Source: a virus
Taxonomy: Duplodnaviria; Heunggongvirae; Uroviricota; Caudoviricetes
Direction: 5' to 3' (one strand)
DNA length: 9,500 bases
Virus record (IMG/VR): IMGVR_UViG_2547132272_000020
Location: 1-9,500 of that record
Below the pieces are notes generated by a model, which saw only the letters and a program-made list of their open reading frames with translations, had not been told where the DNA came from and searched no databases. Made by a program: the position numbers and the translations under genes. This document shows positions 1 to 9,500 of the stretch, piece after piece; the stretch's first letter is position 1; each line of letters starts with the position of its first letter.

Positions 1-738
1 AACACCACGGATTTTCAGTTCCCCGGTCATCAAATCACCAGATTTTTTTACATATCGCAGATCAAAATCTGAATAGATATTGCCGGGGTTTATCACGCTG
101 AAATAGCTTTTCTCGCTATCAAGAAGGCAAATCAAAGGAATACCCTTAATGATATCGTTCGCTACCAGCTCGGACTTGTTCCCCTTATAAAGCGGGAACG
201 TACCAAGAACCTTTCCGCCCAGTGTTAATTGAAGTGTCGCGGCATTGGTATTGTTCTGAACGGGGAAAACGATAATCGGGGTTCGTAGCGTCCAGTCTGT
301 ACCTCCATTAACAAAAAACGTCGCGGGAAGCTCCAGAGTCAGCGCGTTTGCAGTGCCGCCAGCAACTCCCGCAATATAATGACCACTCTGAAGCTGCGCT
401 ATCTGTACGAAATGGTTTTCCGAACCACGCGTGGCAAAGTTAGCCACAACGTCATTAAGGGACCAACCTTTCGCGGTTGTTCCTTCCTGCCCACGAATGA
501 CTTTCAACACATCACCGCTTACCGATACCAGGTGACAAATCTCAAATGCAGACTCTTTATTATCGGTAAGCGTAATTTTTGCATAGACACGTTGCCCGTT
601 CGATTTATTTTCAAAATCGGCAGAAAGCAATTTTGCAAATTTAGCCCCTGTACCGGGCATTACCGGAATATCAGTCTGAATCGTGGTGATATCACCAGCC
701 AGTGCTGAAACAACGTTATTGCCAAATCCAAGAATCAT
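1..738 (-). CDS. phage tail fiber protein, N-terminal part (partial; continues past window start)
   Basis: Minus-strand frame is open from the ATG at 738-736 through position 1; I checked all 246 codons and found no stop. The ATG overlaps the TGA of the upstream gene (ATGA). Translation starts MILGFGNNVVSALAGDITTIQTDIPVMPGTGAKFAKLL...KITLTDNKESAFEICHLVSVSGDVLKVIRGQEG... and contains ...SGDLMTGELKI..., which reads like the N-terminal region of enterobacterial myophage tail fibers. Position directly after the gp48/gpI-position gene fits. The family call is recollection, not a search. This ORF is absent from the supplied track because it runs off the window. Confidence 0.75.
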   Translation of the reverse strand, partial: MILGFGNNVVSALAGDITTIQTDIPVMPGTGAKFAKLLSADFENKSNGQRVYAKITLTDNKESAFEICHLVSVSGDVLKVIRGQEGTTAKGWSLNDVVANFATRGSENHFVQIAQLQSGHYIAGVAGGTANALTLELPATFFVNGGTDWTLRTPIIVFPVQNNTNAATLQLTLGGKVLGTFPLYKGNKSELVANDIIKGIPLICLLDSEKSYFSVINPGNIYSDFDLRYVKKSGDLMTGELKIRGV

Positions 739-1361
739 TTTTGAATCACCGTTGTTGCATAGGAATAAATAAAAGGGAGTTTTACATATTTCTGGTCAAT
801 GGCATCTTTCAGAAAATAGCCTATACCATCGCCATACTCTGGTATCTGAATAGAAAAAACGCTGTCCGATACTGTCACACTCACATCAAAAGTGTGCTGC
901 AACGGCGGGTCTATTCCGTTTTTTCCATGAATGAACCGCGCCACACGTCGCTTTAACCAGTCAATGCAGAAATGCGAACCGTCAGCCTTATAAAAATTCC
1001 ACGTTAATATTCGTTTGAAATAATCATCAGGTACATACGATGCCTGCCCCGGAACATAATTCCGCATTGCCGCATAAGGGATTGTATTGTATTCAATGGT
1101 ATCGTATGCGCCGCGTGCAATAGCCTCCTCGGAAACCTGTAGTAAAGGCCTTTCAACGCCATAAATCCCGAGTGCAATCCAGTCCAGCAATTGCCCGGTT
1201 ATTGATTCCGATGTCCAGCATGGCAATGCCAGATTGTTGAGTGAATCGAGGTATTCCTGAGCAATTTCATTGTATGCATCAAAGAACGCAACAACATTCG
1301 GATCATCTCTGTACTGCACAAATGGATAAGCAGGGAGAATTTTCTCAGTCAGATATTGCAT
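735..1361 (-). CDS. baseplate/tail protein in the Mu gp48 (DUF2313-type) or P2 gpI position
   Basis: The track gives 735..1469, but its first 36 codons lie inside the J-like gene. The ATG at 1361-1359 (MQYLTEKILPAYPFVQYRDDPNVVAFFDAYNEIAQEY...) is preceded by CAGGT about 8 nt upstream and overlaps the J-like stop by 17 nt. Its stop overlaps the tail-fiber ATG. Function is assigned mainly by synteny between baseplate J and tail fiber. Confidence 0.55.
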   Translation of the reverse strand: MQYLTEKILPAYPFVQYRDDPNVVAFFDAYNEIAQEYLDSLNNLALPCWTSESITGQLLDWIALGIYGVERPLLQVSEEAIARGAYDTIEYNTIPYAAMRNYVPGQASYVPDDYFKRILTWNFYKADGSHFCIDWLKRRVARFIHGKNGIDPPLQHTFDVSVTVSDSVFSIQIPEYGDGIGYFLKDAIDQKYVKLPFIYSYATTVIQK

Positions 1362-2571
1362 ACTTGTTGACCTGAACCTGTGATGCCACCGTTGAAAAAT
1401 AGGAATAGGTATCGCCATAAACCAGGCTTGTGTCTTTCGCCGGAAGAACAATATGGCCGTTAATACCAATGCTCACACTGATTGTTGAGATCAACGTCGC
1501 ATCAACCAGCAACCTGACGGAACTGGTAAAAATATCCTGGATACGCAGAAGATTTATCGGGTGTCCGACTTCAATTGAATTGATGTAATCAGCAACGTTT
1601 TGCTGCACAGCCATAGCAATACCCGCCGGATCAACATAATCATCAGACACCGTGTTCCAGGTGATTAGCACCATGACGTTTTGTGATGACGGGATAACGA
1701 ACGGCACCTGATAAACGTCCGGTGAAACGGTTATTGAAACCGTGCGTTTTTCCACTGCCGCACCGGATGGATTGCTAACATCGTTGGTCAGTTTCGAAAT
1801 ATCCGGTACAGATTTGTAAATCGCATAAGCCACATCATACGGATCACCGCCACCAACAACCGCAACCCATTTCCCCAGCGACGACTGCCGGAAAGAAATC
1901 AGGTTTTCTCGCACACCGCTTACTGATTTGAGCATCGCTTTAAAGCAATCCGGTGTTCCCTGCACACCAAACATGCCGGACTCCATAACTTCGGCGCGAT
2001 ATGATGCCCATGTCTGCGCCTCCTGACCGGGCATACCTGCGGTAAGGTTCGTGCATTTTACAGGCTGGTCTTTGGGTACTGATGTAATGACCTGCGTTAC
2101 AGTCCCTTCCGGTACAGCCCATGAGCCTGACGTTGTGGCCACACAGTAGACTGGCTCAGTCTGCCCGCTTTCCGGTACCACCGTATCGCGGGAAACCGCA
2201 TACTGGTAGTTACCATCTCCAACCACAAATCCTTTAGGGATACCAAACCCCGGCAACGCCTCAAACACCACGTATACCGCCGTATTTGTACTTAATCCCT
2301 TCTGTGCTCCATAAATGTTTCCGAGTTGCATCAGTAACGGAATATTTGCGCCGTATGGGCTTACGGAGTTAATAAGGTCCACCCGCGCCTGGTCTATTAA
2401 TGCCAGCGCCCCGACTGCCGTGCTGGCAAGGTCTGTAATAAGTCCCGCAGGAAGGTTGGCTGTATATCCAGGTACTTTTTCAGCAACTCTGGTGATAAGA
2501 TTTGCGAGCAAATCATTGGGTGGCGTAGGCTGCGCACCCGCACTGGTCATAGTAATTGGTATTTCTGACAT
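1345..2571 (-). CDS. baseplate J-like protein (Mu gp47 / P2 gpJ / T4 gp6 class)
   Basis: A 408-codon ORF (MSEIPITMTSAGAQPTPPNDLLANLITRVAEKVPGYTANLPAGLITDLASTAVGALALIDQARVDL...). Size and position (before the gp48-like and tail fiber genes) match the baseplate J family, and the N-terminal region resembles J-family proteins from memory. No recognisable Shine-Dalgarno precedes the ATG at 2571; the upstream sequence is AT-rich and is the antisense of the RBS of the divergent 158-aa gene. Confidence 0.7.
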   Translation of the reverse strand: MSEIPITMTSAGAQPTPPNDLLANLITRVAEKVPGYTANLPAGLITDLASTAVGALALIDQARVDLINSVSPYGANIPLLMQLGNIYGAQKGLSTNTAVYVVFEALPGFGIPKGFVVGDGNYQYAVSRDTVVPESGQTEPVYCVATTSGSWAVPEGTVTQVITSVPKDQPVKCTNLTAGMPGQEAQTWASYRAEVMESGMFGVQGTPDCFKAMLKSVSGVRENLISFRQSSLGKWVAVVGGGDPYDVAYAIYKSVPDISKLTNDVSNPSGAAVEKRTVSITVSPDVYQVPFVIPSSQNVMVLITWNTVSDDYVDPAGIAMAVQQNVADYINSIEVGHPINLLRIQDIFTSSVRLLVDATLISTISVSIGINGHIVLPAKDTSLVYGDTYSYFSTVASQVQVNKYAISD

Positions 2572-2608
2572 ATTTATTTATCACTTGAATACATTATAAG
2601 GAGATATA

Positions 2609-3085
2609 ATGCGGTTCTATTTCAACAAAAAAGGTCTTTCTGGTATTTCTGTATCAAGCGGAAGGAGTAGTGGTGGCTGTGGAACATTAATTGGAGTTGT
2701 CTTTATACTTTATTTAATTGGCCATTTTTCATCACCTTCCGATGAAGATATTAAAAATGAATCATCATCTTATAAGACAGCAGTCGTTAAAAGCGACAAA
2801 ATAATTTCCGAAATCTGCGATCAGTTTAGCACTGATGATTCCGCAAAAATATTTTTTAATTCAAATCTAAACAAACATTGGTATAAAACAAAAGTTAAAG
2901 TAAATTCACTATCAGATCAAAGATTATCTGCGATTGATTTCAAAAATCCAGAATTAAAGTATGAAATAAGAATGTCTGATTCAAGACCATTAAGAGTAGG
3001 GGATATTATTTCCGTTGAATTTGTACCTACTGAATTCAGTAAGTATTCATGCGAAATCAGTGGCACAATAGGTAAGTACAAGTAA
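2609..3085 (+). CDS. hypothetical membrane-anchored protein (AT-rich cargo gene); predicted basic N-terminus, one TM helix, ~115-aa C-terminal domain
   Basis: Strong RBS: AAGGAG ends about 7 nt before ATG 2609 (ttataaggagatataATG). The N-terminus MRFYFNKKGLSGISVSSGRSSGG is basic, followed by the hydrophobic stretch CGTLIGVVFILYLIGHF and then an acidic stretch SSPSDEDIKNESS. Stop TAA at 3083-3085 is followed immediately by a perfect hairpin terminator. Composition is markedly more A+T-rich than the tail genes. No family recognised. Confidence 0.65.
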   Translation: MRFYFNKKGLSGISVSSGRSSGGCGTLIGVVFILYLIGHFSSPSDEDIKNESSSYKTAVVKSDKIISEICDQFSTDDSAKIFFNSNLNKHWYKTKVKVNSLSDQRLSAIDFKNPELKYEIRMSDSRPLRVGDIISVEFVPTEFSKYSCEISGTIGKYK

Positions 3086-3090
3086 CCTCA

Positions 3091-3123
3091 AAAAAAACAG
3101 CCCGCTGAACGCGGGCTGTTTTT
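3091..3123. terminator. bidirectional intrinsic terminator between convergent cargo genes
   Basis: aaaaaaACAGCCCGCtgaacGCGGGCTGTttttt: a perfect 9-bp GC-rich stem (3097-3105 / 3111-3119) with a 5-nt loop, flanked by an A-run on one side and a T-run on the other, so each strand gets hairpin plus U-tract. It sits between the stop of the 158-aa gene (3085) and the stop of the minus-strand gene (3122-3124). Confidence 0.8.
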
Positions 3124-3511
3124 AATATACGCCACGAATAAGATCTTGGGTAAAAACATCACATCCTTCGCTACCTAATTGCAGTCTTTTCTTAAAGTAC
3201 TCAATAATACCGTCATTATGAACGCCATTTTTGGAAATTTTTAACCACGTATTGCTCCATTCTATACTTTGGAGTTTTGTTAAAGCCGCTTTTTCATTTC
3301 CTTCACTAACCAAGCGACACGATTCTGATAGTTGATCAGTTACAATCATTTCATTTCTCATATGCTGAAGCAATTGTCGCTGTTCTTCGCTTAAAGTAAC
3401 ATCTTGATTAGTAATGAGTCTTTCTGATTTTTCAATTGGCGTACCAATCGCACACCAAGAGACGAATAAAATTGTAAATAAAGGGAGTGTAATTTTTATA
3501 CTGACCGACAT
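3122..3511 (-). CDS. hypothetical secreted/periplasmic protein with N-terminal signal peptide (AT-rich cargo gene)
   Basis: The track gives 3122..3517 starting at a GTG. The ATG two codons downstream (3511-3509) is preceded by GAGGTG and gives MSVSIKITLPLFTILFVSWCAIG|TPIEKSERL...: short polar n-region with Lys, hydrophobic core, small residues before a likely signal peptidase I site. It is not a lipobox (no [GAS]-C). The mature part has two Cys. Composition is AT-rich. No family recognised. Confidence 0.6.
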   Translation of the reverse strand: MSVSIKITLPLFTILFVSWCAIGTPIEKSERLITNQDVTLSEEQRQLLQHMRNEMIVTDQLSESCRLVSEGNEKAALTKLQSIEWSNTWLKISKNGVHNDGIIEYFKKRLQLGSEGCDVFTQDLIRGVY

Positions 3512-3517
3512 AATCAC

Positions 3518-3830
3518 CTCATTATCAAATGTTCATGCGGATTTTATCAACGGTTTCCCTCTATTCAAATCAGACTTTACATCCATGAGCTATTGAGTAT
3601 GATTATGCGCATGAGGCGTCGAAACCTCTTTCACGCGGCCTAGACCAACCCCGTCAGTGTTGGATTTTTTATGCCTACAATTCAGTGATGGCACAATGTG
3701 CGGTCACATCCCCGATCAATGTCGGGAGGGCGACGAATACAACACCCGAAAGGGAAATAAGTCCGCGGTTTCGTGAAGCCGTTTCGAACCTCCTGGCACC
3801 ACAATTTCGAAAAAATTTCACGAGGTTTCT
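3518..3830. promoter_or_regulatory. divergent control region and long leader upstream of the antirepressor gene, with repeated motif and a hairpin plus T6
   Basis: Three copies of a motif TCGAAA(C)-N3-4-TTCACG: 3618-3635 (direct), 3772-3789 (inverted) and 3805-3822 (direct, abutting the GAGG Shine-Dalgarno of the antirepressor gene). Hairpin CCAAC-N8-GTTGG followed by ATTTTTT at 3646-3670. Candidate plus-strand sigma70 promoter TTTACA (3576-3581), 16-bp spacer, TATGAT (3598-3603). Direct repeats TTATCAA / TTATCAA / TATTCAAAT at 3522-3571. All sites are read by eye. Confidence 0.35.
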
Positions 3831-4388
3831 ATGACCAGCCAATTAATTCCCGTATTCAACGGCATTGTTTCAAACGAAACTACCCTTCTCTGCAACGCTC
3901 GCGATCTGCACACCTTTCTCGAAGTAGGTAAACGCTTTGCTACTTGGATCACCGAGCGAATCGGCGAGTATGAATTCATAGAAAATCAGGACTACATAGC
4001 TATTTCCCAAAAACGGGAAATAGGTCACGGACGAGGGAAAAAGGACTACCACCTCACCCTGGACACCGCCAAAGAACTGGCAATGGTCGAGCGCAACGAA
4101 AAAGGCCGCCAGATCCGCCGATACTTCATCGAGTGCGAGAAGAAGCTGCGCGAGGATACCACCAGCACACAATCCCCTCTGAATGTTGACATCATCATGC
4201 GCGTCAGAAACGGCTCGGTTACCCACATTGAGCACCACAAATCAGGCTCAGTTATAACCACAGAATGGGCAATTCACTTACTACGCAAAAGTGGATGGAT
4301 TGTCATGCCACGCGATGAACTTCTTAACACGCCACTGGCCCAACTGATGCCCGAAAATTTGACTCAAACCGGAACCTGCGTCCGGTAA
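3831..4388 (+). CDS. AntA/AntB-family phage antirepressor-like protein (185 aa)
   Basis: GAGG lies 5 nt before ATG 3831. The translation MTSQLIPVFNGIVSNETTLLCNARDLHTFLEVGKRFATWITERIGEYEFIENQDYIAISQ...KDYHLTLDTAKELAMVERNEKGRQIRRYFIECEKKLRE matches my recollection of the AntA N-terminal domain signature (LH.FLEVG..F..WI..RI..Y.F.E..D... YHLTLD.AKELAMVERNEKG...R.YFIECE) found in enterobacterial prophage antirepressors. Orientation is opposite to the tail genes. The 3' end overlaps the 3' end of the convergent gp25-like gene by 25 nt (4364-4388). Confidence 0.8.
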   Translation: MTSQLIPVFNGIVSNETTLLCNARDLHTFLEVGKRFATWITERIGEYEFIENQDYIAISQKREIGHGRGKKDYHLTLDTAKELAMVERNEKGRQIRRYFIECEKKLREDTTSTQSPLNVDIIMRVRNGSVTHIEHHKSGSVITTEWAIHLLRKSGWIVMPRDELLNTPLAQLMPENLTQTGTCVR

Positions 4389-4711
4389 CTGGTCCCATTA
4401 AAAAACACAACATCGATGTTATAGGTGGGGTTCTCTGCCCCATCTACCTTTGAAATTGCCAGCGATGCAAAATACCCGGCAAACTGTTGCTGAACCATGT
4501 TCACATAGTAGTCCGGGTAAATTTGCTGCACGATGCACTGCTGCGCTGGAATGCCGTAATTCGCGTAAAACGGCGACTCCCCCAACCCCAGCTTTAACGT
4601 CTGAATGAGCGTCGTCAGCCAGCCGTAGGAGAAATCACCGCTGGCGTCAGATTCTACAGCAACCCATTTTTTGTTGCCGTTCGCGTCGGTGACGCGGCCC
4701 CATGTTCTCAT
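4364..4711 (-). CDS. putative baseplate wedge protein, gp25 / P2 gpW / Mu gp46 class (115 aa)
   Basis: AAGG lies about 7 nt before ATG 4711. Size (115 aa) and position between the spike and baseplate J genes fit gp25-like proteins. The segment GLGESPFYANYGIP has the same G-E-(6 residues)-Y-G-x-P spacing as the signature I recall from gpW/TssE-type proteins (for example ...GSRVMRRDYGS... in P2 gpW). This is recollection and needs a profile search. Confidence 0.5.
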   Translation of the reverse strand: MRTWGRVTDANGNKKWVAVESDASGDFSYGWLTTLIQTLKLGLGESPFYANYGIPAQQCIVQQIYPDYYVNMVQQQFAGYFASLAISKVDGAENPTYNIDVVFFNGTSYRTQVPV

Positions 4712-4714
4712 GCG

Positions 4715-4879
4715 TCAACCTTTCAAGTAAATTAGGGTACCGGTAGCCAGAGCGGTACAAATGATCCACGCTACTGGAGTCAGAATATGCCGAATACCCT
4801 GACATACTGCGATTATTCTCGCAGCCTTATCAGCTCCTTGTGGGGTTGTCTCAGCCTTAAGAATCAGTTCGCTATCCAT
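4715..4879 (-). CDS. small hypothetical membrane peptide B (54 aa), translationally coupled to the downstream gp25-like gene
   Basis: Not in the track (below size cutoff). ATG 4879-4877 is preceded by AAAGG 6 nt upstream. Translation MDSELILKAETTPQGADKAARIIAVCQGIRHILTPVAWIICTALATGTLIYLKG: polar N-half and a ~21-residue hydrophobic C-terminal segment. Its TGA stop (4717-4715) lies 3 nt before the ATG of the 115-aa gene. Its start overlaps the stop of ORF A by 8 nt. Confidence 0.4.
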   Translation of the reverse strand: MDSELILKAETTPQGADKAARIIAVCQGIRHILTPVAWIICTALATGTLIYLKG

Positions 4880-5039
4880 TTAGAACCTTTATGATCTCTG
4901 CGATTCCCGGAAGCGATTTAGCAACTGCAAACCCTCCGATAACTATAAGAACTGCATAAAACATTCTTCTCAGAACCGGACTTCTTTCGAGCAATTTTAG
5001 AGCTTCCACAATCCAGTCTCCTCCGCTAAAATTAATCAC
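4872..5039 (-). CDS. small hypothetical membrane peptide A (55 aa from GTG; 30 aa if started at the internal ATG 4964)
   Basis: Not in the track. GTG 5039-5037 is preceded by GGAGG with a 6-nt spacer (TTGGAGGTCTTCCGTG). Translation (M)INFSGGDWIVEALKLLERSPVLRRMFYAVLIVIGGFAVAKSLPGIAEIIKVLNG, with a hydrophobic C-terminal segment. Stop TAG is at 4874-4872. Start codon choice is uncertain. Confidence 0.35.
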   Translation of the reverse strand: MINFSGGDWIVEALKLLERSPVLRRMFYAVLIVIGGFAVAKSLPGIAEIIKVLNG

Positions 5040-5084
5040 GGAAGACCTCCAAACATACGTAATTATCCCTTGCCTTATTCAAGG

Positions 5085-5126
5085 TCAGAAACAGAAAGCC
5101 CCGACTGTTTGCCCAGTCGGGGCTTT
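5085..5126 (-). terminator. intrinsic terminator downstream of the spike gene (hairpin is symmetric enough to act on both strands)
   Basis: AAAGCCCCGACTG tttgcc CAGTCGGGGCTTT: perfect 13-bp stem (5095-5107 / 5114-5126) with a 6-nt loop. On the minus strand it is followed by UUUCUGUUUCUG (5094-5085). It lies 39 nt after the spike stop (5165). Confidence 0.7.
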
Positions 5127-5164
5127 CGCTTTATGGATAGAATTTAAAGTGAAATGAACCGGTA

Positions 5165-5878
5165 TTAACCCGGATTTGGTTTCTTTGACGTGATCGTGCT
5201 GTTGCCGCTTTGAACCCCAGTCACATCGTGGCTGTGACCGCTGGCGCTGACACCTTTTATCATCGCGTCGTTTTGCACAGTAAGCGGGCCAATCAGCGAA
5301 GCGGTTGTATCCTTCATCTGGGCTTTGTCCTGGACGATCGGTCCGTTGAGGTGAATTTTCCCGTTCAGGAAAATATCTTCGGCCTCGAGGTAAACAGCTT
5401 TCGACTTTTGCCTGATTTCTTCCGGTGCCACCGTTACCGAGCTACTGCCGTCCTCTGTTTTGAGGATCGCGCCATCCGGACCGTACAAAACGATCTTTTG
5501 CGGATCTTCGTCGGACCAGTCCTTGTTTGCCAGTGGCACGAAAAACAGTGGAGTGAGCGACATCGAGTAAGAGAGCGTCGCCATACCGGTTCCCAATCCG
5601 GACACACCGCGCAGGGATACATCAGCGGCAATTGTTACTCCTCGATCGCCCGGCTGTATCGGGTAACGAATATACGGGAATGTGGCGACAGGGATTGTTA
5701 TCTGCGGAAAGTTGATCCCCTCCGGCAGCATATCAAACTGAACTGTCACTATCTGCCCGCTGACACCGACAACATGGCAGGGCAATTCACGACCTTTAAG
5801 CTCGGCTTGCTGGTTACCAGAACTGGTCATCATCTCCGACAGCGTTCGGAGAAACGGTAATTTTTGAGCGTTTGACAT
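5165..5878 (-). CDS. baseplate spike protein (P2 gpV / Mu gp45 class), 237 aa
   Basis: ATG 5878-5876 overlaps the TAA of the upstream gene (TAATG). Position follows the hub-like gene. The C-terminal region ...MIKGVSASGHSHDVTGVQSGNSTITSKKPNPG carries an H-x-H motif (5228-5236) near the end, as expected for metal-binding apexes of gp5/gpV/gp45-type spikes. Family is assigned by order, size and this motif. Confidence 0.65.
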   Translation of the reverse strand: MSNAQKLPFLRTLSEMMTSSGNQQAELKGRELPCHVVGVSGQIVTVQFDMLPEGINFPQITIPVATFPYIRYPIQPGDRGVTIAADVSLRGVSGLGTGMATLSYSMSLTPLFFVPLANKDWSDEDPQKIVLYGPDGAILKTEDGSSSVTVAPEEIRQKSKAVYLEAEDIFLNGKIHLNGPIVQDKAQMKDTTASLIGPLTVQNDAMIKGVSASGHSHDVTGVQSGNSTITSKKPNPG

Positions 5879-6885
5879 TACACCCTCGCCCAGTTCTCAG
5901 CATATGCCTCAAATACCGTCACCCAGGCATCGCCATCGGCTGTCAGATACGAACCAATGTGTCTGACCGATTTCACAAGAAATTTCCCGGTGAACGTGGT
6001 CGAATTTTTTGCGATAACGCTGGGTGCCGTTGTATTAGCCATCACAATCGACGCAGCACCTGAATATAGCCCCTCCGGCAGTTTAACCACATCACCACAT
6101 CTGATATCGCCCCTCATAGGGCATTTGAAGCTGACGGTAAACGGCGCTATCCATGTCGGCTGCCCGACCAGTTCATGGGCATGAATTGTTTTTGGCTCAC
6201 CCCACTTTGCCGATGCGTTATCGTAGATTCGTATTCTGTCGGAAAGAATACTGATGGCGATTCCGCTGTATTTCTCATCGCGCATCATTGCAATTGAAGC
6301 ACTACGGAGGACCATAGCCAGCGAACCAATATCTTCGTAGGTTCCATTCCACGGTTCCGGCAAAACGAGGCTGTCGCTGACAGTACAATCGATCAACTTA
6401 TTCGGAAATGCCTTTTGCAACGCACGGGAGATTACATCACCAACCTTTTCCCCTTTAAGCCCCTCCCCCTCGATAGAGAACGGTTTACCATCATCTGTTT
6501 TGCGTACGGTTGGATTTATTACCAGGTTTAAGGTCTGGTTCGTGCCGATCCAGTTGGCATAGGCCAGATAAATTTCGCCATAAATAACCTCACCCTGTTG
6601 CTGTGGATTTGCCAAAGGCAATCCCTCAACAAAGCCCGCTTTCATACGGACCAGACACCCCTGCAAACTCACGCTTTGCTTCAGCATGTCGATAGGCAAA
6701 CCGTATATTGTGAGCATCGTTCCTGAATTCACTACATCAAGACCCGCTACCTCCACATCAAATTCAACATGTAGCCCACACCCGGGGGTTTTACTGGTAT
6801 CAAAAGGCCCGATAGGTTTACCGTTGCAATCCACTGGCGGCTTGCCTGTTTTAGGATTGATGATTTCCAGTCGGTAATAGCGCAT
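5878..6885 (-). CDS. putative baseplate hub protein (Mu gp44 / P2 gpD position), 335 aa
   Basis: The ATG at 6885-6883 overlaps the upstream TAA (TAATG), and its own TAA overlaps the spike ATG. Assignment is by synteny (immediately upstream of the spike gene) and size; I recognise no motif with confidence. Confidence 0.5.
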   Translation of the reverse strand: MRYYRLEIINPKTGKPPVDCNGKPIGPFDTSKTPGCGLHVEFDVEVAGLDVVNSGTMLTIYGLPIDMLKQSVSLQGCLVRMKAGFVEGLPLANPQQQGEVIYGEIYLAYANWIGTNQTLNLVINPTVRKTDDGKPFSIEGEGLKGEKVGDVISRALQKAFPNKLIDCTVSDSLVLPEPWNGTYEDIGSLAMVLRSASIAMMRDEKYSGIAISILSDRIRIYDNASAKWGEPKTIHAHELVGQPTWIAPFTVSFKCPMRGDIRCGDVVKLPEGLYSGAASIVMANTTAPSVIAKNSTTFTGKFLVKSVRHIGSYLTADGDAWVTVFEAYAENWARV

Positions 6886-7151
6886 TACGAAACCTCAAAC
6901 TGATTAGAACTTTCACGAAAAACGAGTTTCCCCGGCGAGCAAGGCAGCGCCAGATTGATGTCGTAATTGTCAGGTGACGCGATCAACGGTGTGTACACAA
7001 TCACGTCGCCAGAACTGTCTTTCAGTTCCAGATAGTAACGATTTGCATACAGATTAAACGGAACGCGGGCGAATGTTTCATATTTTCCGATTCTGGCCGT
7101 GAACTGAAACGGACCTCGCCCGTCCGGTTTGAAAGGAATTAACGTTGTCAT
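6885..7151 (-). CDS. small tail-module protein of unknown function (88 aa)
   Basis: ATG 7151-7149 overlaps the TGA of the upstream gene (ATGA). The stop overlaps the start of the hub-like gene. Compact coupling within the structural operon supports a real gene; function unassigned. Confidence 0.45.
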   Translation of the reverse strand: MTTLIPFKPDGRGPFQFTARIGKYETFARVPFNLYANRYYLELKDSSGDVIVYTPLIASPDNYDINLALPCSPGKLVFRESSNQFEVS

Positions 7152-7816
7152 AAGCCAATACCAAACTCCTGCACGACCTGGTTCTTAATACCTGACCACG
7201 ATAGCGGACCGTCTGACGGCATCCCTTTATCAAATTTATCCAGAACGCTCGCCAGCGTCTTTACTGTTTGTTCGACAGATGACAATGGTTGCTCAAATTC
7301 AATCTGCCAGGTGTGCTGCACTTGCTTGTTCTGCTCAGAGAAACCGGATGTATCGATAAACGACCGCATCAGGCAACGCGTATAGATAAACGACGGAGTC
7401 AGAACGGTGTAACAACCGCCATACTGGTTATGCATATCAAGCGCCATTTTCAGCGCCGTGAACGTCATTCCCTTCGTGGTGTAGCCACCGTCCTCCGTTG
7501 ATGCCGGACGGATCATCTGCATGACTACCCGGTTAGGCTTCCTGACGGTCGCATTCGCTGCCGTTACCTGGTTATAGAAATTCAGGTTGCAGATATCCTG
7601 CTGGACCAGCGTTGTCCCGGCCATTGGCGTGAATGCCGCCATCGAGCGTGTACGAATCTCTCCATGCAGCAGACCGTTCGCGATGCTTAGTCCTTCGGTC
7701 AGAACAGCAATCGGCATCACCCCGCCAGGAATTTTCGACGCTATGCCATCAACTAAAAGAATGGGCGAAACTTCAAACGCCAGTTTGAAAGCTTGTCCAA
7801 AGTAATTAAGTGACAT
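7148..7816 (-). CDS. tail-module protein following the tape measure (Mu gp43/N position), 222 aa
   Basis: ATG 7816-7814 lies 3 nt after the tape-measure TAA, with a G-rich stretch (GGGG) upstream. Part of a chain of four translationally coupled genes. Function is by position only. Confidence 0.5.
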   Translation of the reverse strand: MSLNYFGQAFKLAFEVSPILLVDGIASKIPGGVMPIAVLTEGLSIANGLLHGEIRTRSMAAFTPMAGTTLVQQDICNLNFYNQVTAANATVRKPNRVVMQMIRPASTEDGGYTTKGMTFTALKMALDMHNQYGGCYTVLTPSFIYTRCLMRSFIDTSGFSEQNKQVQHTWQIEFEQPLSSVEQTVKTLASVLDKFDKGMPSDGPLSWSGIKNQVVQEFGIGL

Positions 7817-7819
7817 CTT

Positions 7820-9500
7820 TTACCCCGGTATTTGTTGCGTTCCGGCGAGTTGTGCCAGTATGTCGGAACCCGGCGATTGTCGCACCTGAAGCTCAATTAT
7901 TGCGCGGGCATTTTTGCCAGCACCCTGAAGATTATCTCTGGCATTTCTTAGCTGATTCATAATACCAGGGTGTTGATCCAGGGCTCCCTGAATCTGAGGC
8001 AATAATTTAATTAAATATTTTACAGTCTCCATTCTCAAACTTAGATTTCCATCTCTATCAATACGACCTCCGTTATATGCCGTAAGCATTTTTGCCACAT
8101 CGCCTTTATAACGCCGATTCAGATCATTTAAAAAGCGGCCAGCCGCAAGAGTGGATTTATTTGGGTCATAAACATCATCACCCACCAGACCATACTGTTT
8201 TGCGGTGCTATCCCAGAATTGCCACAACCCCTTAGCGAATCTACCTTTTTCATCAGGAGTTCCTCTTGCCAGAGGATTCCACGAAGATTCAACTTCTGCG
8301 ATAGCTGACATCATATTTTTAGGAAGTCGATAAGTATTATTGGCTTGCTCTACAAAGTTCTGAATATTTCTCTTTAAATCATTAGGCATACGGTAATTTT
8401 TATATACATCATCCTGTTTATAAAACTCACCCGTATACTGATTTGTCATCGGGTTTGCTCCCGGCAACGCACCACCGAGATATTTATTTCCAAATGCCGC
8501 AAGAACTGGATCTGCCTGTTCAGCACCAACTCCGGTTCCGGGGAGATATTTATCTTCCCCACCGATCCATTTGATAGCTGACCATATTGCTTTTGCAATC
8601 CGGCTCACCGCCAGAGAAAAATCGTCAAGATCATTTTTAAATTGTTCGCTATTCAGCCACTTACCAAGTTTCTCCAGCCCTTCGCCAGCCTCAGCGAGAA
8701 TTTTCTGAAAATTTCCACCATTCAGAAAACCTTCAATATTGGATGTCAGCCCATCAGATGCACCTGTGATTAGTGGGTTATATCTGGCGAGAGCTGCATA
8801 CCAGGAATTTGATATTCTGTTTCCATTTACCATCAGGTTACTCACCGTATCCTGATAACCTGACTGCATAGCTGGCGTGAGGTAAGCACCGAGCAACCTA
8901 GTATTTGATGCAAATTTCTCGTTCAGTTGGGGGATCTTGTCCAGATTCGCTTCCACCTGGTTAGTTGTCGCGACATCAACAAATCCAAGCCCTTGTCCGT
9001 TGAGAATCCCCTGAGTAAGTCCTGAACCTTTATATTGCTTAACGAGAGATGCAAGCGCGCTCATAAGTTTGGGCAGATTCTTTGCTGCACCATCTCGAGG
9101 ATCAATTCCAAGACTGACCAGACCAGCATAGTTTGGATCATTTGGATTTTTCTGTGCGTTCGCCAGATGCTGAACCAGTTCTTCTGTGCCAGAAAAATAT
9201 GGCGAATAGGTGGCACGTGCGGCCTGCATCTGTGCGGTTTCCATACCCAGCCCCTGAGCCACGCTGTATTGCGCTGCAACCTTGCTCGCCATATATCCGT
9301 ACCCGAAAGCACCGACCGAACCAAGCGCCGCAATTTTGCTCCCCCAGGATACAGTCGTTTTAAACAGCGTTTTCAGTCGTGAATTGGTCGTTTTAAGCGT
9401 TGAATTGATCTGCTTGTAAGTTTTCAGCGTCCCCTGAGCGTTTTTACCCAGACTACTGAGATACTTATCAAATGAACCGCCCCGGGTTTCCTGGAGAGTG
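7820..9500 (-). CDS. tail tape measure protein, C-terminal part with lytic-transglycosylase (SLT)-like domain (partial; continues past window end)
   Basis: The track starts at ATG 9292, but the same frame is open upstream through 9499 (69 further codons, no stop: ...GKNAQGTLKTYKQINSTLKTTNSRLKTLFKTT...), so the gene is truncated by the window. Residues ~320-420 of the track ORF (about 8033-8335) contain ...MMSAIAEVESSWNPLARGTPDEKGRFAKGLWQF..., matching the family-1 lytic transglycosylase active-site signature (catalytic Glu in E-S, codon 8290-8288). The position before the baseplate genes and the low-complexity Ala/Gln/Gly-rich flanks fit a tape measure. Confidence 0.8.
   Translation of the reverse strand, partial: TLQETRGGSFDKYLSSLGKNAQGTLKTYKQINSTLKTTNSRLKTLFKTTVSWGSKIAALGSVGAFGYGYMASKVAAQYSVAQGLGMETAQMQAARATYSPYFSGTEELVQHLANAQKNPNDPNYAGLVSLGIDPRDGAAKNLPKLMSALASLVKQYKGSGLTQGILNGQGLGFVDVATTNQVEANLDKIPQLNEKFASNTRLLGAYLTPAMQSGYQDTVSNLMVNGNRISNSWYAALARYNPLITGASDGLTSNIEGFLNGGNFQKILAEAGEGLEKLGKWLNSEQFKNDLDDFSLAVSRIAKAIWSAIKWIGGEDKYLPGTGVGAEQADPVLAAFGNKYLGGALPGANPMTNQYTGEFYKQDDVYKNYRMPNDLKRNIQNFVEQANNTYRLPKNMMSAIAEVESSWNPLARGTPDEKGRFAKGLWQFWDSTAKQYGLVGDDVYDPNKSTLAAGRFLNDLNRRYKGDVAKMLTAYNGGRIDRDGNLSLRMETVKYLIKLLPQIQGALDQHPGIMNQLRNARDNLQGAGKNARAIIELQVRQSPGSDILAQLAGTQQIPG

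Follow-up and report, generated by a model that had tools for sequence, protein, structure and literature searches.

Several temperate phages hold the gene of an antirepressor off with the help of a small RNA. In P1 and P7, this task is fulfilled by c4, a processed, trans-acting antisense RNA (PMC12197685). In P22, the small antisense RNA sar lies at the translation start of ant and partly holds the antirepressor off (PMC12197685), and at the isrK-orf45-anrP locus of Gifsy-1 (IsrK, RF01394) a short terminated 5′-leader RNA acts on a long, translationally inactive read-through transcript (PMC4825925). The Shiga toxin (Stx) phage Phi24B carries the canonical set of c4-a1b1, isrK and C4 elements 5′ of its ant gene, which is very weakly expressed in lysogens and the deletion of which cuts late-promoter induction to ~30% (PMC3064807). 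Here, we analyzed a stretch of 9,500 nt of phage DNA (positions 1 to 9,500 of the IMG/VR virus record IMGVR_UViG_2547132272_000020, from here on called the window), in which an AntA-type gene, ant, lies antisense within a tail module and is preceded by an RNA of the family sRNA-Xcc1 (RF02221). We show that this RNA is complementary to the ribosome-binding site of ant and that the complementarity covaries between alleles. Hence, we consider it probable that ant belongs to a mobile, self-contained 'immI-like' cassette that occupies a cargo hotspot of the baseplate module and is held off by a c4-type antisense RNA.

The family sRNA-Xcc1 was first named from Xanthomonas campestris, as a small RNA (sRNA) that is encoded by an integron and acts in trans, and its type member in Xanthomonas is a discrete RNA of ~88-100 nt that accumulates (PMC2996969). 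The searchable literature treats it as a virulence-linked trans-acting sRNA of Xanthomonas and Xylella with many predicted targets. Its neighbors are mentioned in passing, namely the toxin gene symE, 5′ of which it lies in Xanthomonas integrons (bioRxiv 10.1101/2025.06.18.660453), and an ORF6N gene in APSE phages (bioRxiv 10.1101/2020.03.17.996009). A 2025 review of phage sRNAs includes c4, sar and IsrK, but not sRNA-Xcc1. We found no statement of an a/b target-site mechanism for this family in the searchable literature, outside of which a 2011 RNA Biology paper falls, and priority for such a mechanism is possible. In Xylella fastidiosa Temecula1, five head-to-tail copies of sRNA-Xcc1 with a spacing of 381-386 nt occupy positions 1,313,466-1,315,082 on a genomic island (PMC12189769), and a second strain has C4, isrK and sRNA-Xcc1 matches within 400 nt of one another; these arrays might be tandem cassettes of an RNA and a small open reading frame (ORF).

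A search of the window with the Rfam models yielded a single match above threshold, namely to RF02221 on the strand of ant (model positions 1-87 of 87; 69.7 bits versus a gathering score of 53, E=2e-11). This full-length, above-gathering match is what the RNA shares with sRNA-Xcc1 of Xanthomonas, whereas in the window it forms part of the leader of ant and is flanked by cognate target sites. The 3′ end of the RNA lies 25 nt before the ATG of ant (3831). The RNA folds with -28.9 kcal/mol (z=-1.9), and RNAalifold recovered the Rfam topology from 32 diverse members with compensatory changes in 11 of the 18 pairs, leaving the loop and the junction unpaired. In the RNA of the window, the segment b′ (3767-3778), the core of which is the loop of hairpin 2, is complementary to 3816-3827 (UUUCACGAGGUU), which holds the Shine-Dalgarno sequence GAGG of ant (3822-3825), and the junction a′ (3782-3788) is complementary to the site a2, UUCGAAA (3806-3812). 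The predicted duplex (3768-3789 with 3805-3826) comprises one helix of 10 bp and one of 7 bp with an energy of -17.6 kcal/mol, compared to -7.2 +/- 2.5 kcal/mol for shuffled targets, and the target region 3802-3840 is unstructured by itself. A second set of target sites, a1 and b1, is present further 5′ in the 220-nt leader, and its pairing with the RNA is predicted to amount to -20.3 kcal/mol.

This complementarity is maintained by covariation. The leaders of four alleles of the same prophage locus, i.e. the window, the Escherichia phage Rac-SA53 (KU052037) and the related prophages C5 and STEC276, are 83% identical overall, with the differences concentrated in b1, b′ and b2, which change together. 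Given in the order b1, b′ loop and b2, the alleles read TTTCACGCGG, TTTCGTGAA and TTTCACGAGG in the window, TTACAAGCGG, TACTTGTA and ATACAAGAGG in Rac-SA53, CTCAGTGCGG, CCTCACTGA and ATCAGTGAGG in C5, and GCAAAAAGATG, ATCTTTTTGC and GCAAAAAGAGG in STEC276. Among 18 related leaders, ~10 types of b and three types of a (TCGAAA, CTCAAAA and TAGAAA) occur, each matched at all three positions, and the a and b types combine independently of each other. Since alleles differ by 1-3 nt in the length of the loop and in the register with respect to the Shine-Dalgarno sequence, column-wise counting of b′/b2 pairs on a MAFFT alignment was replaced by alignment-free tests of cognate against non-cognate combinations. 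sRNA-Xcc1 passes the gathering score 5′ of ant in Rac-SA53, ETEC1716, C5 and STEC276, and relatives with a truncated ant or none are devoid of it.

The same relationship holds throughout the family. Viral contigs were scanned for the conserved RNA core only (ATACAANACCCGAAAGGG), resulting in 119 loci with 92 distinct RNAs, and exact 7-mer complements in the cognate flanks (75 nt downstream, 130 nt upstream) were counted and compared with 500 shuffled pairings. For the b′ loop region, a complement was present downstream in 52 of the 92 cognate combinations (shuffled mean 5.6, maximum 13) and upstream in 70 (mean 7.0, maximum 14); for the a′ junction, the respective counts were 51/92 (mean 12.0, maximum 22) and 53/92 (mean 12.2, maximum 22). 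Two control segments of the RNA stayed at background level, and the matched b 7-mers comprised 43 distinct sequences. Full-length duplexfold against long flanks gave -23.5 kcal/mol for cognate and -18.4 kcal/mol for non-cognate combinations in a noisy manner, and because these energies were governed by extended interior loops and by the closing stem with its high GC content, it was replaced by the exact-7-mer test and a test for ungapped helices. Up to 68 of the 86 non-redundant ORFs that begin within ~120 nt 3′ of the RNA are of antirepressor type by their Pfam domains (Bro-N 26, P22_AR_N 16, KilA-N 13, AntA 6, ORF6N 4 and Phage_pRha 3). The leader from 3613 on is 87% identical in ~100 Stx phages and 72% identical in Vibrio phages, where it stands 5′ of kilA-N genes, and the element is unannotated in all Stx and Vibrio phage records matched. 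Judged by these comparisons, the cassette of the window typifies a widespread RNA-plus-gene unit.

We compared the locus to the immI region of P1 (NC_005856), in which the P1c4 promoter, a1 (TTGACAG), b1, a 66-nt spacer, c4 (77 nt), a2, b2, icd and ant1 follow each other. The site a2 lies three nt past c4, b1 reads GTTAGTGCGG (GTTAGTGC followed by GG) and b2 reads GTTAGTGAGG (GTTAGTGA followed by GG, which makes the Shine-Dalgarno sequence GAGG). The order of the parts on one predicted transcript and their spacing are the same in the window: a spacer with a hairpin and a U-run, an RNA of 77-85 nt on the sense strand of the antirepressor leader with b′ in its second loop and a′ in its 3′ junction, a2 directly 3′ of the RNA, and b2 overlapping the Shine-Dalgarno sequence, with GCGG in b1 in place of the GAGG of b2. 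The Rfam consensus of C4 and RF02221 also share their topology, i.e. a closing stem, two hairpins, a second loop of 12 nt and a junction of 6-7 nt, and the C4 tail CACC has its counterpart in the ACCA of the window. Furthermore, the allelic b codes recall the heteroimmunity of P1 and P7, the controlled gene is annotated as an antirepressor, and in either case tail and baseplate genes of the opposite strand surround the cassette. On the other hand, the RNA of the window matches RF02221, which is in no Rfam clan, whereas P1 and Phi24B score 68.8 and 75.1 bits with C4-type models; hairpin 1 of the window is distinct, no C1-type operator was found in it, and its Ant is of AntA type, unlike the KilAC-type Ant1 of P1. 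By analogy, the cassette would thus work like c4 without being filed in the C4 family.

The isrK model covers the segment of a1, b1 and terminator in P1 (23231-23312, 35 bits, sub-threshold) and in Phi24B (9302-9376, 71.8 bits), which corresponds in position to 3613-3670 of the window. IsrK, c4-a1b1 and 3613-3670 may therefore represent variants of a single element, although isrK is not part of the C4 clan in Rfam. Gifsy-1 resembles the window in that an antirepressor-type gene of a prophage is controlled via its leader, but the window has neither an isrK model match nor an upstream ORF like orf45, and its leader hairpin is weak. The immI region of P22 is located among late genes. It has in common with the window an antirepressor gene held off partly by a small antisense RNA at the translation start, but sar is transcribed antisense to the arc-ant junction and occurs together with the repressors Arc and Mnt, and none of these was found in the window.

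With regard to the leader, the promoter-like site (Table 1) lies 110 nt 5′ of the small RNA with a predicted transcript start at ~3610-3612. Both hexamers are also found in C5 and STEC276. In Rac-SA53, the equivalent place is taken by a different pair close to the consensus, TTGACT...TACAAT. A sigma-70-type promoter of its own is proposed for the cassette. The short hairpin with its T-run between b1 and the small RNA (3645-3670) is near-invariant among the 18 related leaders and is tentatively regarded as a possible attenuator or terminator, by which a short RNA with a1 and b1 would be released. In most related leaders, a further short hairpin (e.g. CCACTCCGATAGTGG) stands between the ACCA tail of the RNA and a2, and in the window allele (3802-3805; alignment columns ~208-230) a deletion of 12-21 nt removes it, so that a2 abuts the RNA. 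The divergent intergenic region between the gene for the 131-aa protein and the ant promoter contains a direct repeat (3522-3555; TTATCAAATGTT and TTATCAACGGTT, 22 nt apart), with which two promoter-like sites of the minus strand overlap; either of the two genes could have its operator here. Two ORFs overlapping the RNA, 3675-3842 (minus strand, 55 aa, TTG start) and 3773-3931 (plus strand), were discarded as spurious, the region being explained by the RNA and its covariation.

We propose the following mechanism for the cassette. From its own promoter (~3576-3603), one transcript would run through a1, b1, the hairpin and U-run, the 85-nt RNA, a2, b2 and ant. The hairpin-2 loop region b′ and the junction a′ would pair with b2 and a2 and thereby occlude the ribosome-binding site, and Ant would go untranslated as long as the RNA is present, by the same mechanism as with the c4 antisense RNA of P1 and P7. 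The pairing of loop and 3′ junction with the ribosome-binding site thus predicts translational silencing, and ant is probably kept silent in the lysogen. In analogy to c4, we infer that the RNA is excised from the leader, with RNase P as the probable enzyme in view of the tRNA-like stem and the ACCA at its end, and that it then accumulates and blocks ant in cis and in trans. Hartmann et al. reportedly described the c4 precursor as an RNase P substrate in 1995. Acting in trans, the RNA would silence the resident ant and an incoming ant of the same a/b code, but not one of another code. The a1-b1 copy, which is devoid of a Shine-Dalgarno sequence, would compete for the RNA as a decoy or anti-antisense element as for IsrK, possibly in the form of a short RNA ending at 3645-3670, and the balance of the small RNA and the a1-b1 RNA would set whether Ant is made. 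Candidate targets of Ant are the repressor of this type of phage, which is short, non-cleavable and DicA-like, and that of a co-resident prophage; antirepressors are known to relieve short DicA-type repressors (PMC3121763; bioRxiv 10.1101/2023.04.14.536235). Since Rac-SA53 also carries rem, the role of ant may lie chiefly in superinfection or in an action on other prophages.

A number of observations weigh against this reading. The models for C4 (RF01695), c4-a1b1 (RF03163) and isrK found no match at E<=1, neither in 3500-3900 nor in the whole window, and the link to c4 is therefore one of architecture and not of a shared model. The leader hairpin with its U-run is weak (z=0.27 for 3611-3672), and the allele of the window is without the post-RNA hairpin of most relatives. 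Unlike P1, the window has no icd-like coupling ORF in the 25 nt between RNA and ATG, and b2 covers the site of ant itself. The antirepressors tested elsewhere are different proteins, as P1 Ant1 has a KilAC domain and Phi24B Ant the domains ORF6N and P22_AR_C, and neither is similar to Ant of the window. No repressor operator was found at the ant promoter. LexA-controlled antirepressors (GfoA/GftA of Gifsy, Tum of 186, Rem of Qin) likewise face short, non-cleavable repressors and are encoded outside the immunity region (PMC3121763; bioRxiv 10.1101/2023.04.14.536235), but no LexA box is present near ant (20-nt consensus, <=3 mismatches) and Ant, with its 185 aa and its AntA domain, differs from the small GfoA-like proteins; LexA control of ant was ruled out for lack of such a box, the single CTGT-N8-ACAG match (one mismatch) at 9352 being distant from ant and at chance level. 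Rac-SA53 moreover carries a separate GfoA-like antirepressor candidate for its DicA-type repressor, rem, and ant is thus not obviously needed for induction. Finally, ant is truncated or missing in some relatives that otherwise look intact (E. coli W, PapRG-04-4), and the RNA at this locus could act in cis only.

This last point leads to the strongest alternative, a leader switch in which the RNA is never released and b′ and a′ pair either with a1-b1 (ON) or with a2-b2 (OFF), the choice being set by transcription kinetics or by the leader hairpin, and in which trans immunity does not arise. All partners are indeed on one transcript within 220 nt, the pairing with a1-b1 is at least as stable as that with a2-b2 (see above), and alternative structures with effects in cis have been documented at the related isrK locus (PMC4825925). 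However, a member of the family accumulates as a discrete RNA of ~88 nt (PMC2996969), the architecture of the locus mirrors that of the processed, trans-acting c4 (PMC12197685), the tRNA-like closing stem with its ACCA tail fits an excision, and selection on specificity in trans accounts more readily than a switch in cis for the hypervariable b codes found at a single locus. We therefore regard a switch restricted to cis as unlikely.

According to the sequence-only reading, ant may be used in the lysogen, for example on other prophages. Taken to its full extent, this would mean that Ant is made constitutively in the lysogen to cross-induce or cross-regulate prophages, and that the antisense placement mainly separates it from late transcription. 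The promoter-like site of its own, the location in a cargo island and the existence of cross-acting antirepressors (PMC3121763) would suit such a role. Yet the ribosome-binding site is complementary to an RNA of the same transcript and the pairing is kept by covariation, which is indicative of selection for keeping Ant off, and ant of Phi24B behind its c4-type leader is barely expressed in the lysogen (PMC3064807). Constitutive production is hence highly improbable, and use in the lysogen runs counter to the silencing predicted from the c4-like RNA; cross-induction of other prophages by ant is nevertheless possible. We give even less credence to a toxin/antitoxin-like or abortive-infection module, in which Ant would be a harmful DNA-binding effector of KilA-N/Bro-N type that is released from its antitoxin RNA when infection or stress depletes the RNA or supplies a decoy: the prophage hotspot with alternative cargo such as a 'type I restriction endonuclease' gene, sRNA-Xcc1 5′ of symE in Xanthomonas integrons (bioRxiv 10.1101/2025.06.18.660453), the growth arrest through AntQ upon derepression of isrK-anrP in Gifsy-1 (PMC4825925) and the annotation of P1 kilA as 'product can kill host' are outweighed by the lack of PADLOC matches for Ant or its neighbors and by the antirepressor families to which most genes behind sRNA-Xcc1 belong.

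The favored reading of ant as the gene of a c4-type cassette draws for the protein itself on family membership. Ant matches the Pfam family AntA/AntB (PF08346) with 96.2 bits (cutoff 27, E=1.8e-27, profile positions 2-68 of 68) and several anti-repressor families of PHROGs; the gene is annotated 'ant: antirepressor protein' in Rac-SA53 and 'antA/AntB antirepressor family protein' in RefSeq. The N-terminal ~110 residues are conserved throughout and are also found fused to other C-terminal domains, e.g. P22_AR_C, and E. coli, Salmonella, Citrobacter and Cronobacter have full-length relatives of 185-189 aa that are 80-99% identical. For the C-terminal ~70 residues, Pfam gave only noise at E<=10 and a PDB sequence search was empty; the AlphaFold2 (AF2) model is of low confidence past residue ~113, and Foldseek of this model against the PDB found nothing better than E=0.9. 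Since the tested antirepressors P1 Ant1 and Phi24B Ant are unrelated in sequence to Ant, we infer solely from the family name that it inactivates a phage repressor; both proteins were dropped as support for the function of Ant, and what they support is the regulatory logic alone. PADLOC-DB gave zero matches for Ant, the 131-aa ORF, the 158-aa ORF and the alternative cargo of four relatives, upon which an assignment of the cassette as a defense system was abandoned.

Table 1. Positions of the ant cassette, its parts and the neighboring genes in the window
Feature	Position	Strand	Remarks
phrog_8212 protein	735-1469 (ORF as listed)	-	
Baseplate_J gene	1345-2571	-	start codon at 2571
Variable cargo island	2577-4353		blastn breakpoints versus six related prophages; between the Baseplate_J and 115-aa genes
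Cargo ORF, 158 aa	2609-3085	+	predicted membrane segment, hydrophobic N-terminal segment; 'hypothetical' in ETEC1716
Cargo ORF, 131 aa	3122-3517	-	hydrophobic N-terminus; 'hypothetical' in ETEC1716
Promoter-like site	3576-3603	+	TTTACA-16 nt-TATGAT; consensus scan, 10/12 matches
Upstream target copies a1 and b1	3613-3638	+	direct repeat, inverted repeats
a1	3619-3625	+	TCGAAAC; flanked by GAGG and CCTC
b1	3629-3638	+	TTTCACGCGG; copy of b2 with GCGG replacing the Shine-Dalgarno GAGG
Short hairpin, then T6	3645-3670	+	CCAAC-9 nt-GTTGG; between b1 and the small RNA
sRNA-Xcc1 RNA (RF02221)	3721-3805	+	85 nt; cmscan, full-length match
Closing stem	3721-3729/3789-3797	+	9 bp
Hairpin 1		+	GAAA-capped inner stem; conserved AAUACAA...ACCCGAAAGGG core
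Hairpin 2	3765-3782	+	loop UUCGUGAA
b′	3767-3778	+	core is the hairpin-2 loop, 3770-3777
a′	3782-3788	+	single-stranded junction UUUCGAA
3′ tail	3798-3801	+	ACCA
Downstream target sites a2 and b2	3806-3825	+	inverted repeat
a2	3806-3812	+	TTCGAAA
b2	3816-3825	+	TTTCACGAGG; includes the ant Shine-Dalgarno GAGG (3822-3825)
ant, 185 aa	3831-4388	+	ATG start; AntA domain at residues 22-89 (nt 3894-4097)
115-aa baseplate-module protein	4364-4711	-	conserved; phrog_7986; 3′ end overlapped by ant
237-aa protein		-	spike-like; bppV in a relative's annotation
335-aa protein		-	hub-like; phrog_196
222-aa and 88-aa proteins		-	tail/baseplate module
SLT-domain protein	7820-9292	-	

The window itself is 95.6% identical to Rac-SA53 across 85% of its length, and prophages of 27 complete E. 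coli genomes are 94-98% identical to it, by which it classes as an E. coli lambdoid prophage of the Rac-SA53 type. Rac-SA53 is a lambdoid prophage at ttcA with dicC, Q, rem, hok/sok and LT-IIa toxin genes, and its repressor is DicA-like, possessing a helix-turn-helix only and no S24 peptidase domain. Pfam, PHROGs and the annotations of relatives assign the genes around ant to a minus-strand baseplate and tail module. Several statements of the sequence-only reading were borne out by this analysis: the AntA-type signature at the N-terminus is recovered by Pfam at residues 22-89, ant (3831-4388, plus strand) does face the minus-strand baseplate and tail genes, its end overlaps the convergent gene for the 115-aa protein by 25 nt (4364-4388), and it can be regarded as cargo. 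The contention that immunity or early regions are the normal place of antirepressors proved too narrow, as immI of P22 lies among late genes and the c4-icd-ant unit of P1 immI is likewise flanked by opposite-strand tail and baseplate genes, which gives the antisense placement in a tail module a classical precedent.

The cargo nature of ant follows from the comparison with related prophages, in which the island is replaced or rearranged. By blastn, 2401-2576 is common to all six relatives, and the backbone runs to 2576, just past the start codon of the Baseplate_J gene. In PapRG-04-4, homology to the backbone restarts at 4354, and a 386-aa 'type I restriction endonuclease' gene takes the place of ant, which is absent. 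E. coli W keeps 4041-4388 only, and its ant is flagged as a pseudogene that lacks the N-terminus. Rac-SA53, C5 and STEC276 keep the whole cassette from ~3570-3612 on, with different neighboring cargo such as an LprI-family protein and hypotheticals. The ant copy is intact in most relatives, so that its disruption in close relatives, also raised at the outset, holds for E. coli W but not in general. Hence, ant is dispensable prophage cargo within an island of variable content. With quite different genes in the relatives, the site resembles a moron or defense hotspot. The 158-aa and 131-aa cargo ORFs are without a Pfam, PHROG or PADLOC family match. Because backbone homology begins at 4354 in the ant-less relative, i.e. 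inside the ant ORF, the final 35 nt of ant are backbone DNA, and the 25-nt overlap is best explained, and most simply, as read-through of the ORF across the insertion junction to the next stop codon; a regulatory role for the overlap was rejected for the same reason.

Among the neighboring genes, the 115-aa protein is possibly gp25/W-like. A gp25 label could not be assigned from its sequence, for which no Pfam match at E<=10, GPW_gp25 included, and no PDB sequence match were obtained, and the fold evidence for a gp25 likeness is weak. The 244-aa ORF with TTG start at 735-1469 (minus strand) is probably overlong, as the alignment to phrog_8212 starts at residue 37 and the counterpart in relatives is annotated with 208 aa and a start that overlaps the end of Baseplate_J by 17 nt. 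A second variable spot (4712-5067) separates the gene for the 115-aa protein from that for the spike-like 237-aa protein. In the window, it comprises the minus-strand ORFs 4715-4879 (54 aa) and 4872-5039 (55 aa, hydrophobic), and relatives have longer or different content at this place, e.g. rac58 in Rac-SA53. Within the string of late genes, 5094-5127 (minus strand) forms a strong GC-rich hairpin of 14 bp with a T-rich tail, the sole terminator-like site found within 2500-5200; the plus strand of this hairpin (5069-5130) gives a sub-threshold Rfam match to sar (24 bits versus 43), which is probably due to chance. Two assemblies labelled 'DH5alpha' (NZ_CP026085 and NZ_CM135829) show for the prophage region the same coverage of 80% and identity of 95.0% as E. 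coli W and the strains derived from it, KO11FL and LY180, and since such values are unexpected for a K-12 strain, they suggest that these assemblies are mislabelled.

The ant gene as such is ordinary and already annotated, and what this analysis adds to it is the c4-like antisense module with its allelic codes. Genes named 'antirepressor' are found in thousands of prophages. This one comes with a built-in antisense brake, and predictions that such genes are active in the lysogen are likely to err if they disregard the leader. For sRNA-Xcc1, matches to which carry no annotation in any of the Stx, Rac-type, Vibrio and other phage records examined, cognate targets immediately adjacent to the RNA and a c4-like behavior provide a concrete and testable function. 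More speculatively, and with considerable reservation, the whole family may constitute a second widespread lineage of c4-type 'immunity RNA', in which each RNA carries a two-part address for its own antirepressor-type gene and serves as a code of self and non-self; the variety of addresses seen amounts to ~20 a codes and >40 b codes, which assort independently. If this were true, a resident RNA would silence the ant of an incoming phage with the same code, and a phage that enters with a different code would produce Ant, by which it could induce or override the resident. Diversifying selection on the code would then have left its footprint in the b sites, which are hypervariable at one E. coli locus within leaders that are conserved elsewhere. 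With its allelic b codes, this locus provides a simple system in which RNA-based heteroimmunity and cross-talk between prophages can be studied experimentally, in strains that carry LT-II and Stx toxin phages.

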